Part shown: piece by piece, positions 4,085 to 15,337 of the stretch | Position numbering within the stretch: position 1 is the stretch's first letter | Layout of the letters: each line of letters opens with the position of its first letter | From: Nitrospirota bacterium | GTDB taxonomy: Bacteria; Nitrospirota; UBA9217 | Direction of reading: 5' to 3' | NCBI GenBank assembly: GCA_963818475.1 | Contig: CAWFSF010000006.1 | Location: 2,112,001 to 2,176,000, forward strand | Length of the DNA: 64,000 bases | The notes under the pieces: model-generated | Told to the model about the DNA's origin: nothing | Seen by the model: only the letters and a program-made list of their open reading frames with translations | Database searches by the model: none | Program-made: the position numbers and the translations under genes

Positions 4085-5557
4085 TTATAGGATCTTCGGC
4101 GGTTTTGTATCAAGAAACACGTTCAGTACCGGCGACGGAGCACTTGCATTGCCCGGTTCGTCATAGGCGATCGCGGTAATGCCGTTGTTGCCCTCGGTCA
4201 GCGTCAGCTGCATGGAAAAAGCTCCTTTTTCGTCGGCCTTGACCGTTGTTTTGGTCGCGCTGTTCACATAGACGTCGATCTTTGCACCCGGCTCGGTCGT
4301 GCCGGTCAGCGTCAGCGCCGGGATCCGCGTCACCGGCGGCAGCGCATTCAGGGTTGGCGAAGCCGGGGGGGTGGTCTTCAGCACCACATTGATGGTCGCG
4401 GGCTTTGCCTGGTTGCCCGCCCGGTCCACAGCGGTTGCCGTGATCGTGTTCTTGCCTTCGATCAGGTTCACACTGGACAGGGTGAACACGCCCTTCGAGA
4501 CCTGGACCGGGGTGTTGTTGATCTTGACCATGGCCATGGGATCATTGACCGTGCCGGTGACCGTAATCATCTTCTTGTTCGTCACCATCATCTCTTTCGG
4601 TTCGGTCAGCGTAATGGTGGGCGCGATCGTATCAACCGTGATCTTGACCGAGACCGTGGCCGCGTTGCCTGCCAGGCTCACGGCCTTGACCACGATCACG
4701 TTCGGGCCTTCATCCATCTTCACATTTGCCGTGAAGGTGCCCGAAGCGAGCACGGCCTGCACTTCCTGGCCCGTGCGCGTTGCAACGGTGACCGACGCCA
4801 CGTTTTTGTCCGCCGTACCCGTTACCGTGACCGTGCCGGTGCTCAGCAGGCTGTTCGAAGACGGCGCCGTAATATTGATCACGGGCGGCTTGCTGTCCAG
4901 GACCAGGATGACGCTGTCGCTTCCCGTGTTCCCGAACTCGTCGGTCACGGTGGCTGTTACGGTATTAGTGCCTTCGACCAGGTTTACCCTGGCGCTGAAA
5001 GCTTCTTTTTCAACAGCAGCGACCACGCCGTTCACCACGATCCTTGCCCTGCTGTCATTCACCGTACCGACGATCAGAACAGGCGAGTTGTTCAAGAACT
5101 GGTTTGGTTTGTGCGACGTTATCTTCACGACCGGCGGCAGGGTATGGATCGTGAAAGACCAGAGGGTCGATTCGGTGTTGCCGGCCTTGTCAACGATATC
5201 GAGCTTCACCTTATGGCTTCCGTCAGTCAGGGGCGCTGCCGGCACATAGGTGATCTTGTTCTGCATGATCTGAGCGGCTGCTGAAACGTCCTGGCCGTCA
5301 ACGTACATTTTGCTGTCCGTGGTGCTGACGCCGATGCCGTCATCCATGTATTCCGCAGCGATCGTCGGCTTCGAGTTGTTGATCAAGCCGCCATCACGCG
5401 GAGTCAGGCTCATCTTCGTGTCTGGAGCTGTTTGCACGGCAACAGCCGTTCTCTTTACGGTCGTCTTGCGCAAAGCCTTTTTCTCAGCAGCAACAGCCGT
5501 TCCCGCCTGTGAACAGAACAGAACGGCCATAAGGATCGTCATGCAGCGTAACAACAT
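4085..5557 (-). CDS. Secreted tandem bacterial Ig-like domain protein
   Basis: Signal peptide; about five ~90-aa repeats of the type LxEGxNxITxTAxDxAGN...DTxPP. Confidence 0.85.
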   Translation of the reverse strand: MLLRCMTILMAVLFCSQAGTAVAAEKKALRKTTVKRTAVAVQTAPDTKMSLTPRDGGLINNSKPTIAAEYMDDGIGVSTTDSKMYVDGQDVSAAAQIMQNKITYVPAAPLTDGSHKVKLDIVDKAGNTESTLWSFTIHTLPPVVKITSHKPNQFLNNSPVLIVGTVNDSRARIVVNGVVAAVEKEAFSARVNLVEGTNTVTATVTDEFGNTGSDSVILVLDSKPPVINITAPSSNSLLSTGTVTVTGTADKNVASVTVATRTGQEVQAVLASGTFTANVKMDEGPNVIVVKAVSLAGNAATVSVKITVDTIAPTITLTEPKEMMVTNKKMITVTGTVNDPMAMVKINNTPVQVSKGVFTLSSVNLIEGKNTITATAVDRAGNQAKPATINVVLKTTPPASPTLNALPPVTRIPALTLTGTTEPGAKIDVYVNSATKTTVKADEKGAFSMQLTLTEGNNGITAIAYDEPGNASAPSPVLNVFLDTKPPKIL

Positions 5558-5860: not shown

Positions 5861-6595
5861 TTGAGAACCGCTGTTGCCGCGTTTTTTGCAACTCTGATCG
5901 TTTCCCTGGTGCCCCCGGTTGCCCATGCTGATATTTATCAGTATACCGATGGGAACGGAGTATTGCATTTCACCAACGTTAGTGGCGGCAAGAACCACAA
6001 ACGGGTGAGATCAGAATCCCCGAAGAAGATCCAGCCTGAGACAGCCTTCCTCCCGCAGGAATCAACGCCCTCAAGAAATACGATTTCTTCGGCAAATATG
6101 CCGAGCACCTATCTCGACATCATCCAGTCCGCCTGCAACCGGCACGGTGTTGATCCGGCGCTGGTGCATGCGCTCGTGAAGGTCGAATCGGACTTTAACC
6201 CCTATGCCCTGTCCAGGAAAGGGGCCATGGGCCTCATGCAGCTCATGCCGCAGACGGCCATGGACATGGACGTGCAGAACTCCTTTGATCCGAGCGACAA
6301 CGTCGACGGCGGCGTCAAATATCTCCGCTATCTCATCGACCGGTACGAAGGGAACCTTTCGCTGGCGCTCGCTGCATACAACTCAGGAGAGACCGCAGTC
6401 AAGAAATGGGGGACCATCCCGCCCTTCAAGGAAACACAGAACTATGTACAGCGGGTCCTCGGATTGTATAACGGAAAGAAAAAGCTGCACGTCCCGCGCT
6501 ACACGGTCTACATGGGATACGCCGAGGACGGTTCTCTGCTCGTCTCGGACACTCCGCAGCCCGGCCAAAAAAAGATCTCCCGAAGAGACCTCTGA
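5861..6595 (+). CDS. Lytic transglycosylase (SLT domain) with N-terminal DUF4124-like domain
   Basis: IYQYTDGNGVLHFTN motif; SLT motifs VESDFNP, GAMGLMQLMP, ALAAYNSG, ETQNYV. Confidence 0.9.
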   Translation: MRTAVAAFFATLIVSLVPPVAHADIYQYTDGNGVLHFTNVSGGKNHKRVRSESPKKIQPETAFLPQESTPSRNTISSANMPSTYLDIIQSACNRHGVDPALVHALVKVESDFNPYALSRKGAMGLMQLMPQTAMDMDVQNSFDPSDNVDGGVKYLRYLIDRYEGNLSLALAAYNSGETAVKKWGTIPPFKETQNYVQRVLGLYNGKKKLHVPRYTVYMGYAEDGSLLVSDTPQPGQKKISRRDL

Positions 6596-6598
6596 TCC

Positions 6599-7045
6599 CT
6601 AGATCCAGACCACCTTATCGAAGTCCTGCAATCCTTCCACAATATGGTTCGTCGTGCCCCGATGGCCGACCTTGAGCTTTGACTCAAGGTCATAGTGCTT
6701 GAGGCAGGTGCCGCAGGAGTACATCTCGACGCCCATGGCCTCGATTTCCTTCAACACGCCCGCGGTTTCGTCGTTCACCGTGGTGAGCTTGACGCCTGCA
6801 TTCAGGAAAAAGATCGTGTGCGGAAGCTGCTTCGTCGCCTTCATCGTATCGAAAAACCCTTTTACCAGTTTTTTCCCGAGTTCCTCGTCCTTGCCAAGAG
6901 CATCGGTGCCGATGATGAGCAGCAGATGTTTCTTGTCCCCCGTCTCCGGATTCAGCCTTCCTGCTTCCGCCTTCGTACTACAGCAGTTATTTGACAACTG
7001 TTCCGCACTCCGCGATCCGCATTCGTTTTGCATATTATCCCTCAA
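6599..7045 (-). CDS. yedF: Selenium metabolism protein YedF-like (DsrE fold, no TusA domain)
   Basis: G-DEELGKKLVKGFF, IFFLNAGVKL and SCGTCL motifs; downstream of selD. Confidence 0.8.
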   Translation of the reverse strand: MRDNMQNECGSRSAEQLSNNCCSTKAEAGRLNPETGDKKHLLLIIGTDALGKDEELGKKLVKGFFDTMKATKQLPHTIFFLNAGVKLTTVNDETAGVLKEIEAMGVEMYSCGTCLKHYDLESKLKVGHRGTTNHIVEGLQDFDKVVWI

Positions 7046-7106
7046 TTCCCCTGTTCCGCATCCTCATTCCCGCTGCTTTGTTCACGAATTCCGCATTCCG
7101 CATCCG
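7000..7106. repeat. Imperfect heptamer tandem repeats (TTCCGCA-type)
   Basis: ttccgcactccgcgatccgcattc ... ttccgcattccgcatcc; overlaps the yedF start. Confidence 0.65.
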
Positions 7107-7116
7107 GGAACTATCG

Positions 7117-7899
7117 TTATTTAACAATATCGCTCCAGACCTTGACCGCGGTAGCCAAAATAAGCGCAGCGAGCAGCCATCGTAAGAACTGTGTTCTTGT
7201 CCTCTTCCCCACGATGCTGCCCCATCGTGCAGCGGGAATGGCGCCAAGGACCAGCGGCAGTGCCATCAGAAAAGGCACCTGCGACGTGGCGACCTTCCCG
7301 ATCAACCCAGCCGAGGACGAGAAGAGCCCGATGGCAAGGGTGCTGCCGAGGGCGACCCGCAGGGGGATCTTCAAAACATACAGCATCATCGGTATCAGGA
7401 TGAACGCCCCGCCCTGCCCTACCAGGCCGATGGAGAAGCCGAGCGCGATGCCGATAACCACCGCGGTCGGCTTATGATACACAACCGCATCCTCGGTCAA
7501 ATCGTCCTCTCCATAACTGCGCGGGACGAGCATCATGCCCGCTGCGATCAATGCCAAGGTCCCGAAGACCAGAAGCAGGAGGCCGTCAGGCACCTGCTTT
7601 GACACCAGCGAACCGATAAGCGACGACAGGAACAGCGAAGAACCGAGCGTCAGAACGAGCGATCTGTTCACGAGCGCGTTTTTGTGGTAGAAGAACAGCG
7701 CCGTCAGGGCGGAAAAAAAACCCTGGGCCATCGTGAGGCCGGTGATATCTTTGACGTCGATGCCGCCAAGGCCCAAAAGCGGCGGCACATAGAGCAGGAG
7801 CGGGAACATGACGATCCCGCCGCCGATGCCGAGCAGGCCCGCGAGAAATCCGACGGACAGGCCCACCAGTGCCAGGAACAGATACAGAGTGACGTCCAT
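7117..7899 (-). CDS. TauE/SafE-family (sulfite exporter) transporter
   Basis: GFLAGLLGIGGG and GLVGQGGAFILIP duplicated motifs; ATG lies 1 nt after the selD stop. Confidence 0.9.
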   Translation of the reverse strand: MDVTLYLFLALVGLSVGFLAGLLGIGGGIVMFPLLLYVPPLLGLGGIDVKDITGLTMAQGFFSALTALFFYHKNALVNRSLVLTLGSSLFLSSLIGSLVSKQVPDGLLLLVFGTLALIAAGMMLVPRSYGEDDLTEDAVVYHKPTAVVIGIALGFSIGLVGQGGAFILIPMMLYVLKIPLRVALGSTLAIGLFSSSAGLIGKVATSQVPFLMALPLVLGAIPAARWGSIVGKRTRTQFLRWLLAALILATAVKVWSDIVK

Positions 7900-7900
7900 G

Positions 7901-8948
7901 CTATTGCTCCACAAAGATCCGTTTCGTACCCTGTCCCGCCCCGTCCTGTACATCGCCGATATAAGCTGCCAGGATATTCTCCTTCTGCAGCGCCGCGATA
8001 AGCCGCGCCTTGTTCTCCTGGGACACGAATATCAGGAGGCCGCCCGAGGTCTGAGCATCGTTCATCAGGATCCGGTCAATCGCGGAAACGTCGGCGCTCC
8101 ATTCCACAATGGGATCATAGCTCTTCTGGTTTGCCCGCGTGCCCCCCGGGACCATGCCCAGTCTCCGCGATTGTTATTGCCTCTTCAAAAACAGGGACCT
8201 GACGCGCGTGGAGACGCGCCGTGCGCTTACTCGCCGTCAGCACCTCGTTCAGGTGTCCGATGAGGCCGAAGCCGGTGATATCCGTGGCCGTGCTGACACC
8301 CACCTCGAGCATGATCTCTCCGGCCCGCTTGTTGAGCGTAGCCATGGATTTGGTGAACGCTTCCGCGGTCACGGCACTGCATTTCCCGGCTTTGATCCCG
8401 GTCGAGATCACGCCGGTGCCGATCGGTTTCGTGAGGATCAGGGCGTCGCCTGGTTGCGCTTTTGCATTATCGAGTATTTTATCCGGGTGGACATTCCCCA
8501 TGATGGCATACCCGAACTTCGGTTCCTTGTCCTTGACCGTATGGCCGCCGATGATGAACACGCCGGCCTCGGTCATCTTGTCGATGCCGCCCTGCATGAT
8601 CTTTTTGTTGATCTCGTAAAACTCCGCTCCCGCCGGAAGCGCCGCGATGTTCAGGGCGACCAGCGGCCTGCCGCCCATGGCGTAGACGTCGGAGAGCGAA
8701 TTGGCGGCCGCGATCGCGCCGAACCAGTAGGGATCGTCCACGATCGGGGTGAAGAAATCCGCGGTCAGGACCATGGCGATCTCGTCGGTAATGCGGTAGA
8801 CGCCGGCGTCGTCGGCATTTGAGGCGCCGACCAGCACGTTCGGATCGGTTATCTGTGGCAATTGTCCCAGGACCTGGGACAGTTCAGCAGGGCTGAATTT
8901 TGACGCTCAACCTGCGCAGCTGGAAAGTTGTGTAAGTTTGATTTCCAC
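7901..8948 (-). CDS. selD: Selenide, water dikinase SelD; selenoprotein (Sec at codon 14, TGA 8907-8909); apparent 1-nt frameshift near 8160
   Basis: GTG 8948 gives MEIKLTQLSSCAG-U-ASKFSPAEL, in frame with ORF 8115-8861 (DDAGV, DFFTPIVDDP, AANSLSDVYAMGG, DITGFGL); C-terminal DAQTSGGLL lies in the shifted frame. Confidence 0.95.
8863..8897 (-). promoter_or_regulatory. Candidate SECIS hairpins of selD
   Basis: TTCAGC-CCT-GCTGAA and TGTCCCAG-GTC-CTGGGACA lie just 3' of the UGA. Confidence 0.65.
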
Positions 8949-9092
8949 AGTCCACCACCCCCCGTCATTTCAGTCATGTTCATCTATGATTCCGGTATAC
9001 TTTACGACAGGGGAGGCGAGAGTGTCAATGAGGAAATGACTGATGGGATTTTAACCATCGGTCTCGAGGAGGTACCGCGGAGCGCTGCCGCA

Positions 9093-9743
9093 TCATGCCT
9101 TCCGGATGCCGTCAATGAGCAAATAGGTGTCATGCTTCACATATCGCGTTCCCGTCACGATCAGGTTGGGATTGTTCTGAACATGCGCCAGTGTCTGCCG
9201 GTCGAATCGCGCGCCGTACACTTTTTCAACAAAACGCGCAAAACGGTCCTGCCTTTTTCTCAAAGCAGGATTTTCTGAATACTTCATTTCCAGAAGGCGG
9301 AACCTGCCGCCGGGTTTGAGCACGCGGGCAAACTCCGTGATTGCCTGGTCCTGCAGTTCATCGGGCAGAACGCAGCAGAGGAAGAACGAAACTACCCAGT
9401 CGTAGCGGTCCGAAGGAATGGTCTCCATCCTGCAGGCATCCTCATGGACAAACCGGACCGTGCAGGATGCCTCGTTGCACCGTTTCGAAGCGCGTTTCAG
9501 CATGGCAGGGCTGAAGTCAACAGCGGTCAGGTTGACCCCGGGCTGGTAATGCTTCAAGTTTCGTCCGGTCCCGATCCCCGCTTCCAGCACCTCACCGTCT
9601 ACATCAGCCAAAAGCTCAGGCCGCCATTTCCGGTATTGGAGTTCCCAGGGGTAATCCAGAATATCGTATACCCATGCGGTGATGGCATAGCGTTTCTGAT
9701 TCAGGAGATTCAGCTCGTGGAGATCAAGTTGTTTGAACTTCAT
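9093..9743 (-). CDS. Class I SAM-dependent methyltransferase
   Basis: VLEAGIGTG motif I, DFSPAML, FFLCCV, RVLKPGG; GGAG RBS before ATG 9743. Confidence 0.9.
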   Translation of the reverse strand: MKFKQLDLHELNLLNQKRYAITAWVYDILDYPWELQYRKWRPELLADVDGEVLEAGIGTGRNLKHYQPGVNLTAVDFSPAMLKRASKRCNEASCTVRFVHEDACRMETIPSDRYDWVVSFFLCCVLPDELQDQAITEFARVLKPGGRFRLLEMKYSENPALRKRQDRFARFVEKVYGARFDRQTLAHVQNNPNLIVTGTRYVKHDTYLLIDGIRKA

Positions 9744-9851
9744 GACAGCGCATCTCCTTTCTGTAAAAATACGATCATCCTTATGGGGCTGGGATTTCAA
9801 CTTCTTGTACAGGATCAGACTCTATCCTGCGATGAACATCGCACCCCGGCT

Positions 9852-10274
9852 TTAGAACGTAAGATTCATGTCCGCCGGTATGACCGTATCTTTGTAATAT
9901 TTTGCGGGATCGGCAACCTTCACGCCGTCGATGAGATCATTCTTCTGGATATTGAAGAGCGCCACGTTCAAAGGGCAGGCAAGAACAGTCCCGCCCTCCG
10001 CGATCAGCATGAAGAAAAGGTCTTCTACGGAGGGAAGCTCCATCTCCTCCATTTTTTTCATCACTGCGTCGCCTTCTTCCTTGGGCTGGTCAGGAAGACA
10101 TTTCAGCATCTTCACCTTTTCCTTGTGGACCGCGTTGATTCCGCGCGAGCCGAAAAACATAGTCACCTTCGAGCCTTCCCGCAGCAGGCTCAATGCTGTC
10201 ATAAGGGCGTTGTAGACTTGACAAAGTTCCTCATGGAAACACATCACCGAAACGTTTTTCACGATCTTAGGCAT
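9852..10274 (-). CDS. DsrE2/DrsE-like sulfur-transfer family protein
   Basis: VTMFFGSRG and LACPLNV motifs; MEEMELPSVEDLF segment typical of DsrE2. Confidence 0.8.
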   Translation of the reverse strand: MPKIVKNVSVMCFHEELCQVYNALMTALSLLREGSKVTMFFGSRGINAVHKEKVKMLKCLPDQPKEEGDAVMKKMEEMELPSVEDLFFMLIAEGGTVLACPLNVALFNIQKNDLIDGVKVADPAKYYKDTVIPADMNLTF

Positions 10275-10310
10275 GGCACTCTTCCTCCTTTGGCGAAAAT
10301 TCGCGAACTT

Positions 10311-10898
10311 TTACGCCCATCCATAGGGCGTAACGCTGGAATACGACCTCCAGGTAAAGAGACCTATCACCGCGGTCAGCACGAGTGTGAGCCAGATCGG
10401 AAAGGGGGCCCATACTTGTACCCCCAGCATGGTGGAGAGAAGCACCACGAACAAACAAACCGTGGCAAGGCGTTTCCGCTGAATACGCAGCGGCCCGATC
10501 CGCTTTGCGAGTTCCGGGGTCGCGGGCGCTCCGCCGGCCTGCGCGAAGAGAGCGTCGATTCGGGGTTGCAACGACACATGAACGTATGTCAGCAGGCTGC
10601 CGATCAGAAGAAGGGGAAAAAATTTGATCGCAAGGACGGGTTCGGTAAAAAGAGCCCCCAGGCTCCGGCCGCGCAGCGCTACGAGGATTGCGCCGGAAAT
10701 GAGGGCCGTAGCCTGGAACACGAAACAGGGGATCGTCCGATTCTTGATGATGTTCTCCATATACACATCAACCCGGTCGCCGAGCGGCGGTCCCAGCCTT
10801 CCGCGCTGGTTCACCGCCACAAGCGCATAGAAAGGCCATATCATCAGCATGGCATTGGTTACGTGGATGAACCGAAGGATACCGGTCAATGTCTCCAT
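10311..10898 (-). CDS. Uncharacterised integral membrane protein (about 4-5 TM)
   Basis: Several hydrophobic helices; GGAGG RBS; in operon. Confidence 0.75.
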   Translation of the reverse strand: METLTGILRFIHVTNAMLMIWPFYALVAVNQRGRLGPPLGDRVDVYMENIIKNRTIPCFVFQATALISGAILVALRGRSLGALFTEPVLAIKFFPLLLIGSLLTYVHVSLQPRIDALFAQAGGAPATPELAKRIGPLRIQRKRLATVCLFVVLLSTMLGVQVWAPFPIWLTLVLTAVIGLFTWRSYSSVTPYGWA

Positions 10899-10918
10899 AA
10901 AACCTCCCTGATCAGCAC

Positions 10919-11200
10919 TTAAAACATGCCCACGACTTTATCGCTTTCAACCATCAAGTCCGTCAGGCTGTCGTAATCGATGGTTTTAGCGCGGCCATCC
11001 AGCTCGTCATCCCTGAGGCCCCTGAGTTTTTTGTCATCATCCAGGACATGAATGGCGCCGGGAAAACCCGCGAGCCTCCCCTTCTGGGCGAACAACACGC
11101 CATTCTGAAGCAAAACAAGGTCAGCTGCGCTGTCCCGGGCAAGAGCCACGCCCCGCATGGCGTCGGCAGTGTCCGGCGCGCTTTTGATAAGAACGATCAT
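10919..11200 (-). CDS. DsrH/TusB-family protein
   Basis: LVLLQNGV and VLDDDKKLRGL...IDYDSLTDL motifs; GAGGTG RBS before ATG 11200. Confidence 0.85.
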   Translation of the reverse strand: MIVLIKSAPDTADAMRGVALARDSAADLVLLQNGVLFAQKGRLAGFPGAIHVLDDDKKLRGLRDDELDGRAKTIDYDSLTDLMVESDKVVGMF

Positions 11201-11212
11201 GAAGGCCACCTC

Positions 11213-11566
11213 TCAAAACAAAATTGTCGATTTGGCGCTTTTAATGATACCGGCAATATCTTCGCCCGAGGCCGTTTGCACGCCCTCGACCAGGTCGTCC
11301 CTGGTTATTCGCTGAGACAGCAGAGACGACGCATCGGCATACACGGTAATCCCCATGTCCAAACAGTCCCGCAGTGTCTCTTCAAGGCCGGTGAGGCCGG
11401 TCCCGGCATCGTCCTGTCCTTTTTTCGCGAGCAGAACTCCGCCGTCAACGAGAAGCATATCCACACTCAATTCATTCACCACCGCTCCCAGCGCATGGCG
11501 CACCGCCTCCGCGGCATTCACCGTGCCGTACGGAACGTGCTGAACTATCATCGCGACATCCGCCAT
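11213..11566 (-). CDS. DsrF/TusC-family protein
   Basis: HVPYGTVNAAEAVR and LVDGGV motifs; lies between DsrE and DsrH. Confidence 0.85.
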   Translation of the reverse strand: MADVAMIVQHVPYGTVNAAEAVRHALGAVVNELSVDMLLVDGGVLLAKKGQDDAGTGLTGLEETLRDCLDMGITVYADASSLLSQRITRDDLVEGVQTASGEDIAGIIKSAKSTILF

Positions 11567-11578
11567 GTTCCCTCCGAG

Positions 11579-11941
11579 TCATATTCCCATATTGATCCAG
11601 ACATCCGTTTCCCGCAAGGTCGCGAACAGGACCTTCAGCGAGCCGAGCTGCGCGCCCGGAATGTAATCTTCTTTCGCCGCACGGCGAAAGTTCATGCAGC
11701 CGCCTCAGAGGTGGACCTGCAGCCCCTTGTCGATGAGGCGGGCAAACTCCTGCTCGGCATGCGGCATCCCCTTGGCCTTTTGCTTGGATAAAAAGCAGTA
11801 GAGTCCGTCCGCCGATGCGATAAGGTTCACCCGATGGCCTTTGTTCAAAGCGGATTCCGCGATCCTGATGCTGGAAGCCGCATTTTCAAAGGAATACGGA
11901 GAGCTGGTCAGATAGATCGTGATTGTTTTGGCCATACTCAT
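11579..11941 (-). CDS. DsrE/TusD-family selenoprotein (UGGC motif, TGA 11705-11707)
   Basis: ORF 11705-11941 continues in frame past TGA: VHL-U-GGCMNFRRAAKEDYIPGAQLGSLKVLFATLRETDVWINMGI*. This gives a full 120-aa DsrE with U at the active-site Cys position. Confidence 0.9.
11671..11690 (-). promoter_or_regulatory. Candidate SECIS of the DsrE selenoprotein
   Basis: CTTTCGCC-GTGC-GGCGAAAG hairpin starting 14 nt after the UGA. Confidence 0.7.
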
Positions 11942-11953
11942 TTTTCTCCAGTG

Positions 11954-12739
11954 TCACTGCGTTAAGATCTGATACCACATCTTAAGCCCGGTAACGGCAA
12001 TGATGATTGCAATGGCGATCCGCAAGTGCTTGGTATTTACTTTTTTGCTTACGCCTCCTCCGAACTGGGCGCCCGGCACGGTACCCACGACAAGCGCCAG
12101 CGCAGCGGGCCAGAGAATTTGGCCGGTGACCATCTTGCCGACAGTCCCCGCAAGCGCTCCCAGAAATACGATCCCGAGCGTGCTGCCGATCACGATCCGC
12201 GTCGGGATATTCAAGATATAGATCATGATCGGGATATAGATAAATGCGCCCGGCGCGCCCACCATGCCTCCGAACACGCCGATGACGAGGCTCACGGCCA
12301 TTGCCAATGGCTTATTATATTTGAGTTCGTCTGGCAACATATCCTTCCCCTGTTCGCGCTTGGGGATGAACATGGCCACCGCGGCGATCACCGCCAGAGT
12401 TGCAAAGATGGCGAGCAAAAAGGAGCTTTTCGTGTGCTGTGAGTAAAAAGAGCCCGCAAGATTTCCGATGGCGTTGCAGACGCCCATATAGAGGAGCAGT
12501 GATTTGCTCACAAATTTGCTCTTATTGTGGACGATGACGCCCGTGAGAGAGGCGGACAGGACCTGCACCATGCTGATGGCAGCCACGTGCTTCATGTCGA
12601 ACTGCCCGACGCCAAGAAGCGGCGGCACATAGAGGAGCAGCGGGATCATAAAGATCGCACCTCCCAGGCCTAATAGTCCGGAAAGAAAGCCGCCACCCAG
12701 ACCGAGCGAAACAAGGGTGATCAAGAGGGGGATCTCCAT
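11954..12739 (-). CDS. TauE/SafE-family transporter (second copy)
   Basis: GFLSGLLGLGGAIFMIP and GMVGAPGAFIYIP motifs; ATG overlaps the upstream TAA (TAATG). Confidence 0.9.
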   Translation of the reverse strand: MEIPLLITLVSLGLGGGFLSGLLGLGGAIFMIPLLLYVPPLLGVGQFDMKHVAAISMVQVLSASLTGVIVHNKSKFVSKSLLLYMGVCNAIGNLAGSFYSQHTKSSFLLAIFATLAVIAAVAMFIPKREQGKDMLPDELKYNKPLAMAVSLVIGVFGGMVGAPGAFIYIPIMIYILNIPTRIVIGSTLGIVFLGALAGTVGKMVTGQILWPAALALVVGTVPGAQFGGGVSKKVNTKHLRIAIAIIIAVTGLKMWYQILTQ

Positions 12740-13029
12740 TATGCCTCCGATCCGCTGTTGCTCAGCATCGCCGCTTGTATATCTTCGTAGGTAACGGCAG
12801 CTGTCCCAATCAAAGTGTATGACGGCGCTACGATCCGGCCATTCACCATCACTGATGGACAAGATGGCGGGTCTTTTTCCTGGCTGTATTCCTTCGAGGT
12901 TTTCTTAACAACGACAATTTCCGCGCCGAGTTCCTTCTCCGCCCGACGGGCGGCTTCCATGATGGATAGTCAGCGTTTGCCCATGGGATCATTCATGTAG
13001 AGAGTGATCGTATGCTTTTTCATATACAT
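12739..13029 (-). CDS. Small thioredoxin-fold selenoprotein, NDPxGxxU motif (TsoC-like; TGA 12970-12972)
   Basis: ATG 13029 or 13023 gives MKKHTITLYMNDPMGKR-U-LSIMEAARRAEKELGAEIVVVKK...CPSVMVNG; coupled to the arsR stop; hairpin CCGCCC-GTC-GGGCGG 16 nt after the UGA. Confidence 0.85.
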
Positions 13030-13370
13030 TAACGTCTCCTTTCGCCTGGGTATGCTCCTTTTTTCGTCACCGGGCAGCAGGCCGGTGCGGGGACATCTTC
13101 TGTATATTCTTTTTTAAGCAGATTGAGCAGATCAGGGATGAGGGGTTCTTTCAGGAAGTAGCATTTAAGCCTGCCGTCGACGAAGAAATCAACGATCCCG
13201 TTCGTCCGTAGCAGCGTCAGGTGCTGGGATACGTTCGGCTGGCTGATCTCAAGGGTCTCCTCGAAATCGCTCACGCACTTCACGCCCTGTGTAAGATCTT
13301 CAAGGATCCTGATCCGTATGGGGTGGGCGATGATCTTCAGGATTTCAAAGCGCTTCTCTATGGGGACCAT
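13029..13370 (-). CDS. ArsR/SmtB-family transcriptional repressor
   Basis: LKIIAHPIRIRIL, KCVSD and SQPNVSQHL HTH motifs; C-terminal ACC. Confidence 0.92.
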   Translation of the reverse strand: MVPIEKRFEILKIIAHPIRIRILEDLTQGVKCVSDFEETLEISQPNVSQHLTLLRTNGIVDFFVDGRLKCYFLKEPLIPDLLNLLKKEYTEDVPAPACCPVTKKGAYPGERRR

Positions 13371-13402
13371 GGGTATTTCTCCTCAGGGCGACCGGTACGC
13401 TT

Positions 13403-13654
13403 TCATGTATCGATCAGGCCTGGACCATCCAATCGTATATGAATGATGCTTGCATTTTCCTGATCCACGGCTTTAAGGACACTGCACCACTTATTTTTCA
13501 GGAAGCATTCTACCATCGCTTTCGATGCGATGCTGTTATCTATTCTTACCAGGAGCGTATCTCCCGGGGACAACTTACTCAACTCTGCCATCAACCTCTT
13601 TTTGTCTGGAATGGAACTGTCAAGCATGATATCCAGAGGCTCAGTCAATTTCAT
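13403..13654 (-). CDS. TusA/SirA-fold small protein lacking the CPxP motif
   Basis: LSKLSPGDTLLVRIDN pattern and 83-aa size match TusA. Confidence 0.6.
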   Translation of the reverse strand: MKLTEPLDIMLDSSIPDKKRLMAELSKLSPGDTLLVRIDNSIASKAMVECFLKNKWCSVLKAVDQENASIIHIRLDGPGLIDT

Positions 13655-13686
13655 AAATAACTATATCCCCCTACTCTGCAATTAAT

Positions 13687-13724
13687 TATATGCAAACATT
13701 ATTATGTTTTAATATAAATGTCAA
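13687..13724 (-). promoter_or_regulatory. Promoter with ArsR-type inverted-repeat operator
   Basis: Minus-strand TTGACA at about 13719-13724; palindrome TATAT..AAACAT-4nt-ATGTTT..ATATA overlaps the -10 region. Confidence 0.65.
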
Positions 13725-13881
13725 GCACATTTTTACCGGCCCCGATTAGCCGCCCCGTGCTGAGCATGCGCACACATCCGCAAGCAACGACGAGAAAAGC
13801 GATATGAAGTTTGACCTGGACCAACTGAGTGTGTACACTAGATGCATCTCAGGTTTATTCAGAGCTGAACAGGAGGACGTG

Positions 13882-15337
13882 ATGCTCCGATCATGTTTTA
13901 TCGGCATTGACCAGGGAAGCAGTTCTACCAAGGCGCTTGCCCTGAGCCTTGACGGCCAGGTCCTGTACCAGACGAAGAAGGTCCTTCCGCCTGCGTATCG
14001 CGACGGCCAGCGCGTTGAGCATGACCCTCTTGCCATCCTCGATTCGGTCCGGAAGGTGCTGGACGAAACGATCCAGTACCTTCGCTCCGCCGGCGTTACG
14101 ATCAGCGGCATCGGGCTTGCCTGCCAGCGTTCGTCCTGCCTGGCCTGGGAAGAGCAGACGGGAAAGCCCCTGTCACCCGTCTTAAGCTGGCGCGATACGC
14201 GCGGAGCAGAGTACGTGCAGGGTCTCGGCACGAACGCACCGCGCATATTCGATCTCACCGGCCTGCCGCTTACACCCTATTACGCAGCCTCCAAATTTCG
14301 CTGGCTTGAAAGACCATATGCAGGAAACCCGCGGTCCCGGTGTTGTCTTCGGCACCCTCAGCAGCTTTCTCTGCCAGCGCCTCACGAATGCGGACAAGGC
14401 ATTCATCGACCATACGAACGCGGCCCGGACGCAGCTCATGAACATCCATTCCTGCGCCTGGGATGATGAACTACTGAAGCTCTTCGGACTTGCGGATATC
14501 CGGCTCCCTGCTATCACGCCGACACTGCAAAGTTTCGGCACTGTCCAGGCTGCAGCGGAAAAGATCCCCCTGCTCGCCTGCATCGGCGACCAGCAGGCGG
14601 CCATGGCAGGCCTTGGCATTCTCGAGAAGAACGACGGAGGCATTAACTACGGAACGGGCGGCTTTCTGATGGTGAACACCGGCAGCAGCCTCGTGCCCGC
14701 CCCGGGACTGATGGCGTCGATCCATTACTCAACGGACCAAAACCGGCACTATCTGGTCGAGGGGAGCGTCAATGCCGTGGGCGACAGCCTTGAATGGCTC
14801 AGGGAACAATTGCAGGTTTTTAAGGATTACGCTGAACTGGACGACCATTGCTGGCAGGCGGCAACTGATGTCGTTGCCTTCATCGGCTTGAACGGGACCG
14901 GGTCGCCGCACTGGGAAAGGGACATTTCGAGCTCGATCCATGGCCTGACCGCAGAAAGCAGGCCGGGCGACATCGTTCGGAGCGCTGTCGAGAGCATCGC
15001 CTTCTTCATGAAAGACATCGCTGCAGCAGTCGGGAAGGCAGGGCTCGAGCCAACATCCTTTTCAGTTTCGGGAGGCCTGGCATCGCTCAGCTACCTTGTT
15101 CAGGTCCAGGCCGACATCCTGGGCAAGGACCTGCAGGTAAGCGCTGAGCAGGAGGTATCGGCATTGGGAGCAGCGTTGCTTGCCGGTCTGTCTCTGGGGG
15201 TTTTGTCTTCAGCGGACATTAAAAGGATCGTGCCGCAGGGTGAGGTCGCTCAGGCACGTCAAAATGCCGGTGCGGAAAAACGGTATCGTCGCTGGAAAGA
15301 GCTCCATCGGATGACGAAGCTGCTCGACGAGATGTAA
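13882..15337 (+). CDS. glpK: FGGY-family carbohydrate kinase (glycerol kinase-like); frameshift near 14305
   Basis: GIDQGSSSTK, DHTNAARTQL, GDQQAA, YGTGGF, VEGSV and EVSALGAALLAG motifs across two frames. Confidence 0.7.

Follow-up and report, generated by a model that had tools for sequence, protein, structure and literature searches.

An ArsR-headed operon of Nitrospirota with three likely selenoprotein genes and a possible role in supplying selenium to SelD

We analysed a 64,000-nucleotide stretch from the genome of a Nitrospirota bacterium of sulfate-reducer type (contig CAWFSF010000006.1, positions 2,112,001 to 2,176,000; hereafter the window, with positions counted from its first letter), in which a single conserved ArsR-type promoter/operator heads 13 tightly spaced genes. 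Three of these genes contain in-frame UGA codons that almost certainly specify selenocysteine (Sec), one of them being selD, for selenophosphate synthetase. The reading that we favour, and hold tentatively, is an ArsR-repressed operon for reduced chalcogen species, which in this genome may feed selenium to SelD. The analysis shows the make-up of the operon, the decoding of Sec, the operator and the linkage to SelD, and from these we infer the function, the cargo (selenium or sulfur) and each step of transfer.

Organization of the operon

The 13 genes, named from Pfam and NCBIfam profile scans of the open reading frames (ORFs) of the window, are all co-oriented on the minus strand and span 6602-13654 (read with the standard code plus TGA as Sec). 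This agrees with the original prediction, made from the letters of the window alone, which had listed co-oriented genes from a TusA-like one through TauE plus YedF. From the promoter onwards, the features are:

13724-13719, minus strand: promoter-like TTGACA, ahead of the first gene
13705-13690, minus strand: ArsR-type operator motif ATAATAATGTTTGCAT, between TTGACA and the TusA-like gene
13406-13654, minus strand: TusA-like protein, 83 amino acids (aa) (PF01206, 20.9 bits, below the cut-off of 28.6)
13032-13370, minus strand: ArsR/SmtB-family repressor (NF033788, 69.6 bits)
12742-13029, minus strand: TsoC-like thioredoxin-fold selenoprotein, 96 aa, NDPMGKRU, Sec20 (NF045708, 42.5 bits, cut-off 45)
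12970-12972, minus strand: UGA, Sec20 of the TsoC-like protein
12939-12953, minus strand: hairpin CCGCC.GUC.GGCGG of the TsoC-like gene, resembling a selenocysteine insertion sequence (SECIS), 19 nucleotides (nt) past the UGA
11957-12739, minus strand: TauE/SafE (TSUP) permease 1, TauE1 (PF01925, 151.5 bits)
11582-11941, minus strand: DsrE-like selenoprotein, L-U79-G-G-C82 (PF02635, 53.3 bits; gathering score 22.7)
11705-11707, minus strand: UGA, Sec79 of DsrE
11671-11690, minus strand: SECIS-like hairpin CUUUCGCC-GUGC-GGCGAAAG of the DsrE gene, 17 nt past the UGA
11216-11566, minus strand: DsrF-like subunit (PF02635, 47 bits)
10922-11209, minus strand: DsrH-like subunit (PF04077, 35 bits)
10314-10898, minus strand: multi-pass membrane protein, 195 aa (no Pfam or NCBIfam family)
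9855-10274, minus strand: DsrE2-family protein (PF13686, 52.4 bits)
9096-9800, minus strand: class I S-adenosylmethionine-dependent methyltransferase, UbiE/Methyltransf_25-like (PF13649, 75.1 bits)
7904-8948, minus strand: SelD, selenophosphate synthetase, Sec14, in two frames (TIGR00476, 327.4 bits over residues 1-277; equivalog cut-off 125)
8907-8909, minus strand: UGA, Sec14 of SelD
8863-8881, minus strand: SECIS-like hairpin UGUCCCAG-GUC-CUGGGACA of selD (z = -1.74)
7120-7899, minus strand: TauE/SafE (TSUP) permease 2, TauE2 (PF01925, 138.2 bits)
6602-7045, minus strand: YedF-family protein, DsrE-like half, CGTC (TIGR03527, 134.9 bits, cut-off 110)

The spacing of the genes fits an operon. 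The ArsR and TsoC-like genes overlap by 1 nt, as do the TsoC-like and TauE1 genes, where the TauE1 ATG overlaps the TsoC-like stop; DsrF and DsrH are 3 nt apart, SelD and TauE2 1 nt, and TauE2 and the YedF ORF about 72 nt, the largest gap being the approximately 144 nt from the methyltransferase to SelD. The overlaps and the shortest gaps agree with the translational coupling that had been predicted for several junctions. The flanking genes, for a lytic transglycosylase (5861-6595) and a glycerol kinase (from 13804), run in the opposite direction.

The ArsR-type operator motif (short form ATAATAATRTTTGCAT) recurs in relatives. Among 51 unique ArsR-upstream regions, many carry TTGACA, a 17-nt spacer and ATAATAAT(A/G)TTTGCAT; the commonest 10-mers of the motif are present in 11-17 of the 51, and in one locus the motif is a perfect ATGCAAATAT/ATATTTGCAT palindrome. 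The 64-kb window has exactly one perfect copy (13690-13705), the one ahead of the TusA-like gene, and the same scan gave none before selD; a weak promoter-like site at 9028-8999, found by consensus scan, was no better than chance. That ArsR heads the cluster, as originally proposed, is thus matched by a conserved motif upstream.

Selenocysteine decoding

All three in-frame UGAs are almost certainly Sec codons, because TGA is conserved at these sites, hairpins follow it, homologues have Cys at the same positions and the genome contains selA, selB and tRNA-Sec. The DsrE relatives come from 33 loci found by a DsrE scan of one-genome-per-species contigs, nearly all labelled Nitrospirota. Protein identity (61-87%) continues across the codon, which is TGA in all 32 loci that cover the site; TGA is equally invariant in 16 of 16 relatives covering the site of the TsoC-like gene and in 18 of 18 relatives of the SelD clade.

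Behind every UGA comes a small hairpin, rich in G+C, whose loop contains G-U. The stems are kept in the alignments, with synonymous sites within them nearly frozen and flanking wobble positions variable. In the TsoC-like gene five pairs are kept in all 16 sequences, with one compensatory change from C-G to A-U. The DsrE and selD hairpins show invariance, not covariation: across 33 sequences the stem bases of the former hardly change, even at synonymous sites, and the stem of the latter is invariant in 18 relatives, variation being confined to the third loop base. An Rfam scan of 6000-14500 (E <= 5) returned no SECIS family, and two chance matches only.

Cys homologues were found for all three sites, in line with the Cys-equivalent positions originally assigned to them. 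DsrE U79 aligns with the Cys of four Cys-form orthologues from another family (L073-L076, LCGTC); the metagenomic protein P0008 also has Cys at this site, and E. coli YchN has its CxxC there. The C/U column is invariant in the DsrE alignment. U20 of the TsoC-like protein is Cys in many full-length homologues of 83-86 aa reading NDPMGKRC. For SelD, the residue matching U14 is Cys17 in the E. coli enzyme, and the Sec-to-Cys site of Aquifex SelD falls at the same place. The decoding genes that such a reading calls for are all encoded in the genome, selA and selB side by side.

Public gene calls pass over these codons. Nearly all of 61 database relatives of DsrE are 76-aa stubs ending at the Sec codon, and the TsoC-like gene is shortened in many calls. 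Surveys of sulfur metabolism based on dsrEFH will therefore miss or misread the module, which is present in about a quarter of sampled Nitrospirota genomes.

A fourth Sec, at the C-terminus of the methyltransferase, was considered and rejected: the TGA at 9093-9095 opens 13 further codons (9051-9095, UCGSAPRYLLETDG), an extension not conserved in locus L016, and this TGA is probably, as the comparison suggests, a true stop. Sec in the TauE permeases was likewise rejected: none of 19 TauE2-like and 13 TauE1-like matches has an in-frame stop, and TauE2 of the window has no Cys. Elsewhere, in locus L061 (8357-9505), a 382-aa polyferredoxin-like membrane protein ends ...ITCVHUCGG on TGA readthrough and may be a selenoprotein candidate; its cluster (c21) also occurs in L019, L026, L028, L063, L064 and L072.

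A conserved core in Nitrospirota

The usual order in relatives is ArsR-(TsoC-like)-(TauE)-DsrE(Sec)-DsrF-DsrH-SQR-type flavoprotein-(second ArsR)-DsrE2-RND/MMPL pump-outer-membrane protein (OMP), sometimes with a rhodanese, a YedE/TsuA-like permease or a methyltransferase after the core. Among the 33 DsrE loci, ArsR is upstream in 28, three of the five misses beginning at a contig end, and DsrF and DsrH complete the Pfam triad in 31, both misses ending at contig ends. DsrE2 is present in 17 (relatives 72-94% identical), and an SQR-family gene follows DsrE(Sec)-DsrF-DsrH in 24 of 34 clustered loci. A cultivable relative, a Thermodesulfovibrio-type strain, also has ArsR-DsrE(Sec)FH-SQR. Of 401 genomes sampled evenly from Nitrospirota, 116 have a DsrE match (E <= 1e-10); nearly all matches of at least 37% identity carry one TGA, and whole families are without a match (0/76, 0/40 and 0/28).

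The Sec forms fall into two clades, one of at least 50% identity reading LUGGC (LUGTC in L077, the 50% member) and one of about 40% identity reading IUTGC. In the seven loci examined from the second clade, DsrF and DsrH are always present, ArsR in six and a full SQR in five, with an SQR fragment in a sixth. The four Cys-form loci (L073-L076, family f2) have DsrF, with DsrH in two and rhodanese in two, and a distant SQR-like gene (27-30% identity) is nearby in all four. That the Cys-form genomes lack Sec machinery did not prove to be the case: three of the four have selD and selA above cut-off, and the test does not discriminate. SelD of these f2 genomes is of the Cys type.

No orthologue of the relatives' SQR, RND pump or OMP was found in the genome of the window. 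The 195-aa membrane protein stands where relatives have SQR, and has orthologues in L013, a locus of the same genus in which it likewise replaces SQR, and in L125, where it follows ArsR. No locus but L013 combines the membrane protein, DsrE2 and SelD-TauE in the order seen here, and L013 is without the methyltransferase.

The original prediction expected the neighbourhood to recur in other genomes, and its ArsR-DsrE(Sec)-DsrF-DsrH core does so widely; the exact combination of genes is not conserved, L013 alone coming close. As to the proposed co-occurrence of DsrE(Sec)FH with the TsoC-like protein, paired TauE and the methyltransferase, the TsoC-like gene is present in 16 and TauE1 in 8 of the 33 loci, and the methyltransferase is accessory: it is upstream of window-type SelD in 2 of 19 loci (the window and L116), with an ArsM-like one in a third (L125), and is also found behind a second ArsR in L016 and L057.

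Linkage of the module to one SelD clade

The selD of the window is the only one found in its genome, which is 91% complete. In the host family, selD occurs in 56 of 64 genomes, with every full-length match of the Sec type, and is of several kinds. SelD of the window type (76-94% identical) is present in 19 genomes of five genera. Of the 18 loci whose downstream sequence is available, 17 have TauE2 behind it, and TauE accompanies the other kinds (44-58% identical) in 0 of 39 loci (0/30 and 0/9).

DsrE(Sec)FH is on the same stretch as window-type SelD in 9 of the 19 loci, and in 4 further loci this SelD comes immediately after SQR or RND-OMP, with which the module normally ends. The arrangement varies. 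SQR is upstream of SelD in L110 (with an outer-membrane gene fragment between), L111, L113, L114 and L132, and a pump with an outer-membrane gene in L121, L124 and L129; the same ArsR type directly precedes selD in L061, L071, L112 and L131, and DsrE2 precedes it in L013. In L112 the SelD-TauE pair comes before DsrE(Sec)FH rather than after it. That the linkage is kept despite changed gene order argues for shared function over chance. The link to SelD, originally proposed from the window, is thus strengthened by the same SelD clade with TauE beside the module in several genera, and this linkage favours a possible role in feeding selenium over a purely sulfur role.

YedF adjoins window-type SelD in the window, L111 and L129, and is beside 11 of the first 30 loci of the other kinds; it has been tied to SelD by phylogenetic profile, according to the available part of PMC5322559. 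The SQR-like partner in relatives resembles the flavoprotein domain that is fused to SelD elsewhere (TIGR03169, 61.4 bits, below cut-off). A search of the genome for tRNA 2-selenouridine synthase gave no match above 20.7 bits, and selenophosphate would therefore serve selenocysteine.

In L116 (G200:C2:113000-132999) the set is present twice: TusA-like, ArsR, TsoC-like, DsrE(Sec)FH, SQR, ArsR, DsrE2, pump and outer-membrane gene are followed, about 3 kb on, by a second TsoC-like gene, a methyltransferase of the window type, SelD and TauE. L125 has ArsR, membrane protein, DsrE2, TsoC-like, methyltransferase, SelD and TauE, without DsrEFH; its ArsM-like methyltransferase ORF (10531-11010, minus strand; VLDFGCGAGLD ... 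ISNGVINLSPCK) is between TsoC-like and SelD-TauE.

The component proteins

The TsoC-like protein, named in the original prediction by its NxPxGxxU motif and thioredoxin fold, is related to the published TsoC family, whose threshold it narrowly misses. Residues 7-69 match positions 2-68 of the 87 of NF045708 with E = 4.7e-11, and a six-frame search of the genome with the TsoC model gave 35 bits. The TsoC motif NEPxGxxU reads NDPMGKRU here, with D for E; all 16 aligned relatives keep its N, D, P, G, R and U, and the protein also has a conserved Cys57-Pro. An AlphaFold2 model (pLDDT 75.3) has the order beta-alpha-beta-alpha-beta-beta-alpha, and the top matches of this model in the PDB are all thioredoxins.

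Conservation within the neighbourhood is highest for ArsR. Its cysteines, C32 (GVKCVSDF), C70 and C98-C99 (PACCPVT), are each kept in 37-38 of 38 unique homologues, and alignments to solved structures place C32 where the classical ArsR helix-3 site has its first Cys. The protein is below the cut-offs of both TsoR (NF045707, 35.2 against 115 bits) and BigR (NF040642, 49.2 against 155). Sensing of the BigR/SqrR type was considered and rejected, since the Cys positions of those proteins are non-Cys here: when ArsR is aligned to 3pqj and 6o8k, its E/D/L stands opposite the sensing Cys of their N-terminal part.

DsrE has the features of UxxC selenoproteins, namely U79-G-G-C82, Cys homologues, a conserved hairpin and Sec machinery in the genome. 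The three subunits are all below the equivalog cut-offs of TusD, TusC and TusB (TIGR03012, 15.9 against 89.25 bits; TIGR03010, 33.9 against 94.15; TIGR03011, 35.4 against 49.2). DsrH has no cysteine, and the profile scans found no dsrC or tusE gene within the operon.

The TusA-like protein has lost its carrier cysteine, reading LDSSIPDKK against LDCCIPDKK in relatives. YedF covers just positions 62-194 of the 194 of its profile, the DsrE-like half (YSCGTCLKHY in the window); the N-terminal SirA/TusA domain with CPxP is missing here and present in 9 of 9 relatives examined. Both TauE matches cover the whole of PF01925. A language-model search gave DUF2269 as a look-alike of the 195-aa membrane protein, with high confidence and as a lead only. 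No specific NCBIfam model exists among the matches for DsrE, the membrane protein or the permeases, and the methyltransferase matches no NCBIfam equivalog above cut-off, scoring approximately 25-32 bits against ArsM-type models with cut-offs of 263-575.

Comparison with known systems

Each of the selenoprotein families has already been catalogued (DsrE-like UxxC, TsoC and SelD), and the operon is a new combination of known families. Literature searches, whose coverage left out most subscription journals, found no published description of the assembly. The closest parallel is a 'three selenoprotein operon', Tso, with TsoR, TsoA, TsoB and TsoC, reportedly described by Haft & Tolstoy in 2025 (mSystems). 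The present operon is like it in having an ArsR/SmtB regulator beside an N-x-P-x-G-x-x-U protein and several selenoprotein genes together. It differs in that the TsoC-like protein and ArsR are below the TsoC and TsoR cut-offs, and in that their partners are instead DsrE(Sec)FH, DsrE2, TauE, SelD and YedF. The Tso work is listed in a 2026 review (PMC13188914, available part).

A canonical Tso operon was looked for in the genome and rejected, as neither TsoA nor TsoB was found. TsoA (NF045695) had no match, in a search that was also silent in 14 control genomes, and the best TsoB match (NF045694) was 80 bits against a cut-off of 805, at domain level only, in this 91%-complete genome. At G000:C2:658475-659352 (L047 and L055), a weak TsoC-like match (18 bits) is directly upstream of a DsbD/CcdA-like membrane domain, to which the central part of the TsoB model aligns (74 bits).

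A DsrE-like UxxC selenoprotein (PF02635) is listed for Desulfovibrio vulgaris by Zhang et al. 2006 (PMC1794560, available part) and also stands in a table of the 2026 review (PMC13188914). The window's DsrE shares with it the Pfam family, UxxC and Sec at the carrier-cysteine position; the available text describes no operon for that family, whereas here the protein is encoded first in a DsrE-DsrF-DsrH triad that ArsR controls and that SQR usually accompanies. With DsrEFH/TusBCD the operon shares the E-F-H order of three small genes and one reactive residue on E, and it differs by Sec instead of Cys, a DsrH without Cys and the lack of a dsrC/tusE partner. For sulfate reducers, the available text of Plum-Jensen et al. 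2026 (PMC13293266) describes a DsrEFH type II in synteny with tusA and yeeE/yedE, its Cys being conserved in 99.3% of sequences; that text makes no mention of selenocysteine. The host setting (Nitrospirota/Desulfobacterota with reductive dsrAB) is shared with type II, whereas the window has no yeeE/yedE and its reactive residue is Sec.

Neighbourhoods of selD, yedE and yedF (Lin et al. 2015, PMC5322559, available part) resemble the distal part of the operon in combining SelD, a membrane permease and YedF with CGXC. Here the permease is TauE/TSUP, not YedE, YedF is without the SirA/TusA domain, and the genes are joined to a selenoprotein relay under ArsR rather than standing alone. The operons for sulfide detoxification under BigR, SqrR or CstR comprise SQR, persulfide dioxygenase, rhodanese and TauE. 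Our operon has in common with these its repressor of the ArsR family, its permease of the TauE type and its sulfur carriers, to which relatives add SQR; it differs in having no persulfide dioxygenase, in its selenoproteins and SelD, and in its unmatched sensing Cys. A Sec-containing SelD is in itself classical.

Proposed function and alternatives

In the reading that we favour, the four-Cys ArsR would leave its operator on binding or reacting with chalcogen species, and the two TauE/TSUP permeases would carry a sulfite-like or selenite-like anion across the membrane. The TsoC-like protein (Sec20, Cys57), the YedF domain (CGTC) and DsrE2 would reduce this anion and hold mixed Se-S or Se-Se adducts. 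DsrE (Sec79-x-x-Cys82), with DsrF and DsrH, would form a TusBCD/DsrEFH-like carrier with the atom on Sec79, and SelD (Sec14) would convert the delivered selenide to selenophosphate for the selA/selB/tRNA-Sec machinery encoded elsewhere; any surplus may be methylated by the methyltransferase. The relay would be coupled to the quinone pool, in most relatives, by an SQR-type flavoprotein, whose place is taken here by the small membrane protein. The original prediction, trafficking of selenium or sulfur under an ArsR sensor, is supported in its Sec residues, conserved neighbourhood, operator and link to SelD; it needs changing as to the exact combination of genes, the SQR that belongs to the core in relatives, the accessory methyltransferase, and the TusA-like and YedF proteins, which are defective or reduced here.

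A more specific form of this reading, which we regard as doubtful, is a dedicated Nitrospirota pathway of selenium acquisition for sulfide-rich habitats, with TSUP/TauE uptake, a Sec-DsrEFH carrier (usually plus SQR), a specialised SelD and a Se-responsive ArsR with four cysteines that binds a defined operator. Its Sec-based DsrEFH-like carrier would select trace selenium from a large excess of sulfur. If true, this would be the first system of selenium-specific uptake, relay and regulation described in bacteria, and it would address the open question of how selenide is safely supplied to SelD and how selenium is told from the far commoner sulfur. The operon unites candidate parts for such a task in a single transcription unit: a permease, three Sec/Cys-based carriers, SelD, and a regulator whose operator can be recognised.

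Several observations weigh against the favoured reading. The assignment of the cargo to selenium is one that we infer from sequence, and the carrier families (DsrE/F/H, DsrE2, TusA and TauE), like the partners in relatives (SQR, rhodanese and the YedE/TsuA-like permease), are known from sulfur metabolism; the host itself has dsrAB, dsrC and dsrMK. Among the 33 DsrE loci only L013 has selD within the stretch, and in the family-level comparison DsrE(Sec) and selD are on different contigs in most genomes. In L130, the sole exception of 18, window-type selD has no TauE behind it, and all these counts come from related genomes, which are not independent. The Cys-form module of f2 sits with an SQR-like gene and a rhodanese. 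Finally, the window itself has a TusA-like protein that has lost its cysteines, a YedF reduced to the DsrE-like half, no SQR and a frameshifted selD.

The alternative that survives best, although we consider it unlikely, is an operon for sulfide or persulfide, for detoxification or energy conservation, with selD nearby since the products of the operon need Sec. In relatives SQR would make sulfane sulfur, which DsrE(Sec)FH, DsrE2 and the thioredoxin-like protein would carry; TauE would export sulfite or thiosulfate and ArsR would sense persulfide, Sec being merely the better nucleophile. The recurrence of SQR behind the triad, in the second Sec clade and near the Cys form alike, points this way, as do the rhodanese and YedE/TsuA-like genes downstream in relatives and the dsrAB of the host; complexes of the DsrEFH type are known to transfer sulfur in vitro (PMC13293266, available part). 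Such an operon, however, would leave unexplained why TauE goes with one SelD clade and is joined to the module in varied arrangements, and why YedF is associated; its ArsR is without the Cys positions of the persulfide sensors, and the window is without any SQR. Moreover, a Cys-type DsrE-like gene beside dsrC already serves the dissimilatory pathway, and the triad of the operon would therefore be an extra system. That gene (VCEAC), which adjoins a second DsrE/F-like gene, is approximately 65 kb from the operon (L067, G000:C6:2049000-2061000), in a region for dissimilatory sulfite reduction with dsrC, fragments of dsrM and dsrK, and dsrB-like ORFs.

Far less probable is a defence island against metalloids or heavy metals (arsenic, antimony, tellurium or mercury), in which three or four ArsR cysteines would sense the element, Sec/Cys proteins bind it, the methyltransferase volatilise it and permeases or RND pumps remove it. 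The invariant ArsR cysteines, which include the first Cys of the classical ELCVC site and the C-terminal Cys-Cys, are compatible with this, and so are the ArsM-like methyltransferase between TsoC-like and SelD in L125 and the RND/MMPL pumps with an outer-membrane protein after the module in many loci; some Sec residues may be metal ligands (PMC13188914, available part). No ArsB, Acr3, ArsC or MerA-type gene was seen among the Pfam and NCBIfam matches of the operon, however, the methyltransferase scores far below the ArsM-type cut-offs, and a defence island has no place for SelD and YedF.

The break in selD and the quality of the assembly

The two frames of selD, a 277-aa N-terminal part and an 84-aa C-terminal part, are separated by one extra base near 8161 relative to L013 (85% DNA identity). 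The break is probably an assembly error, as frameshifts are general in this assembly: selA is in four pieces, selB in several, glpK in two, and dsrK and dsrM are broken. Public contigs from four runs, aligned at 85% likeness, did not include one spanning 8161; in public sequencing runs at most 0.14 of sampled words matched, and no RNA run was listed.

A decaying, rearranged remnant that no longer works as a unit in this genome is the least probable of the alternatives: the selD frameshift, SS for CC in the TusA-like protein, the truncated YedF and the failure to find SQR, RND and OMP orthologues in the genome would fit it, but assembly-wide frameshifts make assembly error the simpler reading of the selD break, L013 has the same membrane protein/DsrE2 arrangement with an intact selD, the other reading frames, the three Sec codons and the hairpins are all intact, and the genome, with this sole selD found, retains several selenoprotein genes.

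The glycerol kinase next to the operon consists of the overlapping ORFs 13804-14466 and 14306-15337, which match profile positions 4-141 and 155-488, an assembly frameshift. The selA/selB region at G000:C6:1736324-1739560 (L001-L012) is spread over several frames, which fits frequent indels in the 7-contig assembly. On the other side of the operon and unrelated to it, 4085-5557 (minus strand) encodes a 490-aa secreted protein of repeated Ig-like segments (VTGT..D, TVTATVTD).

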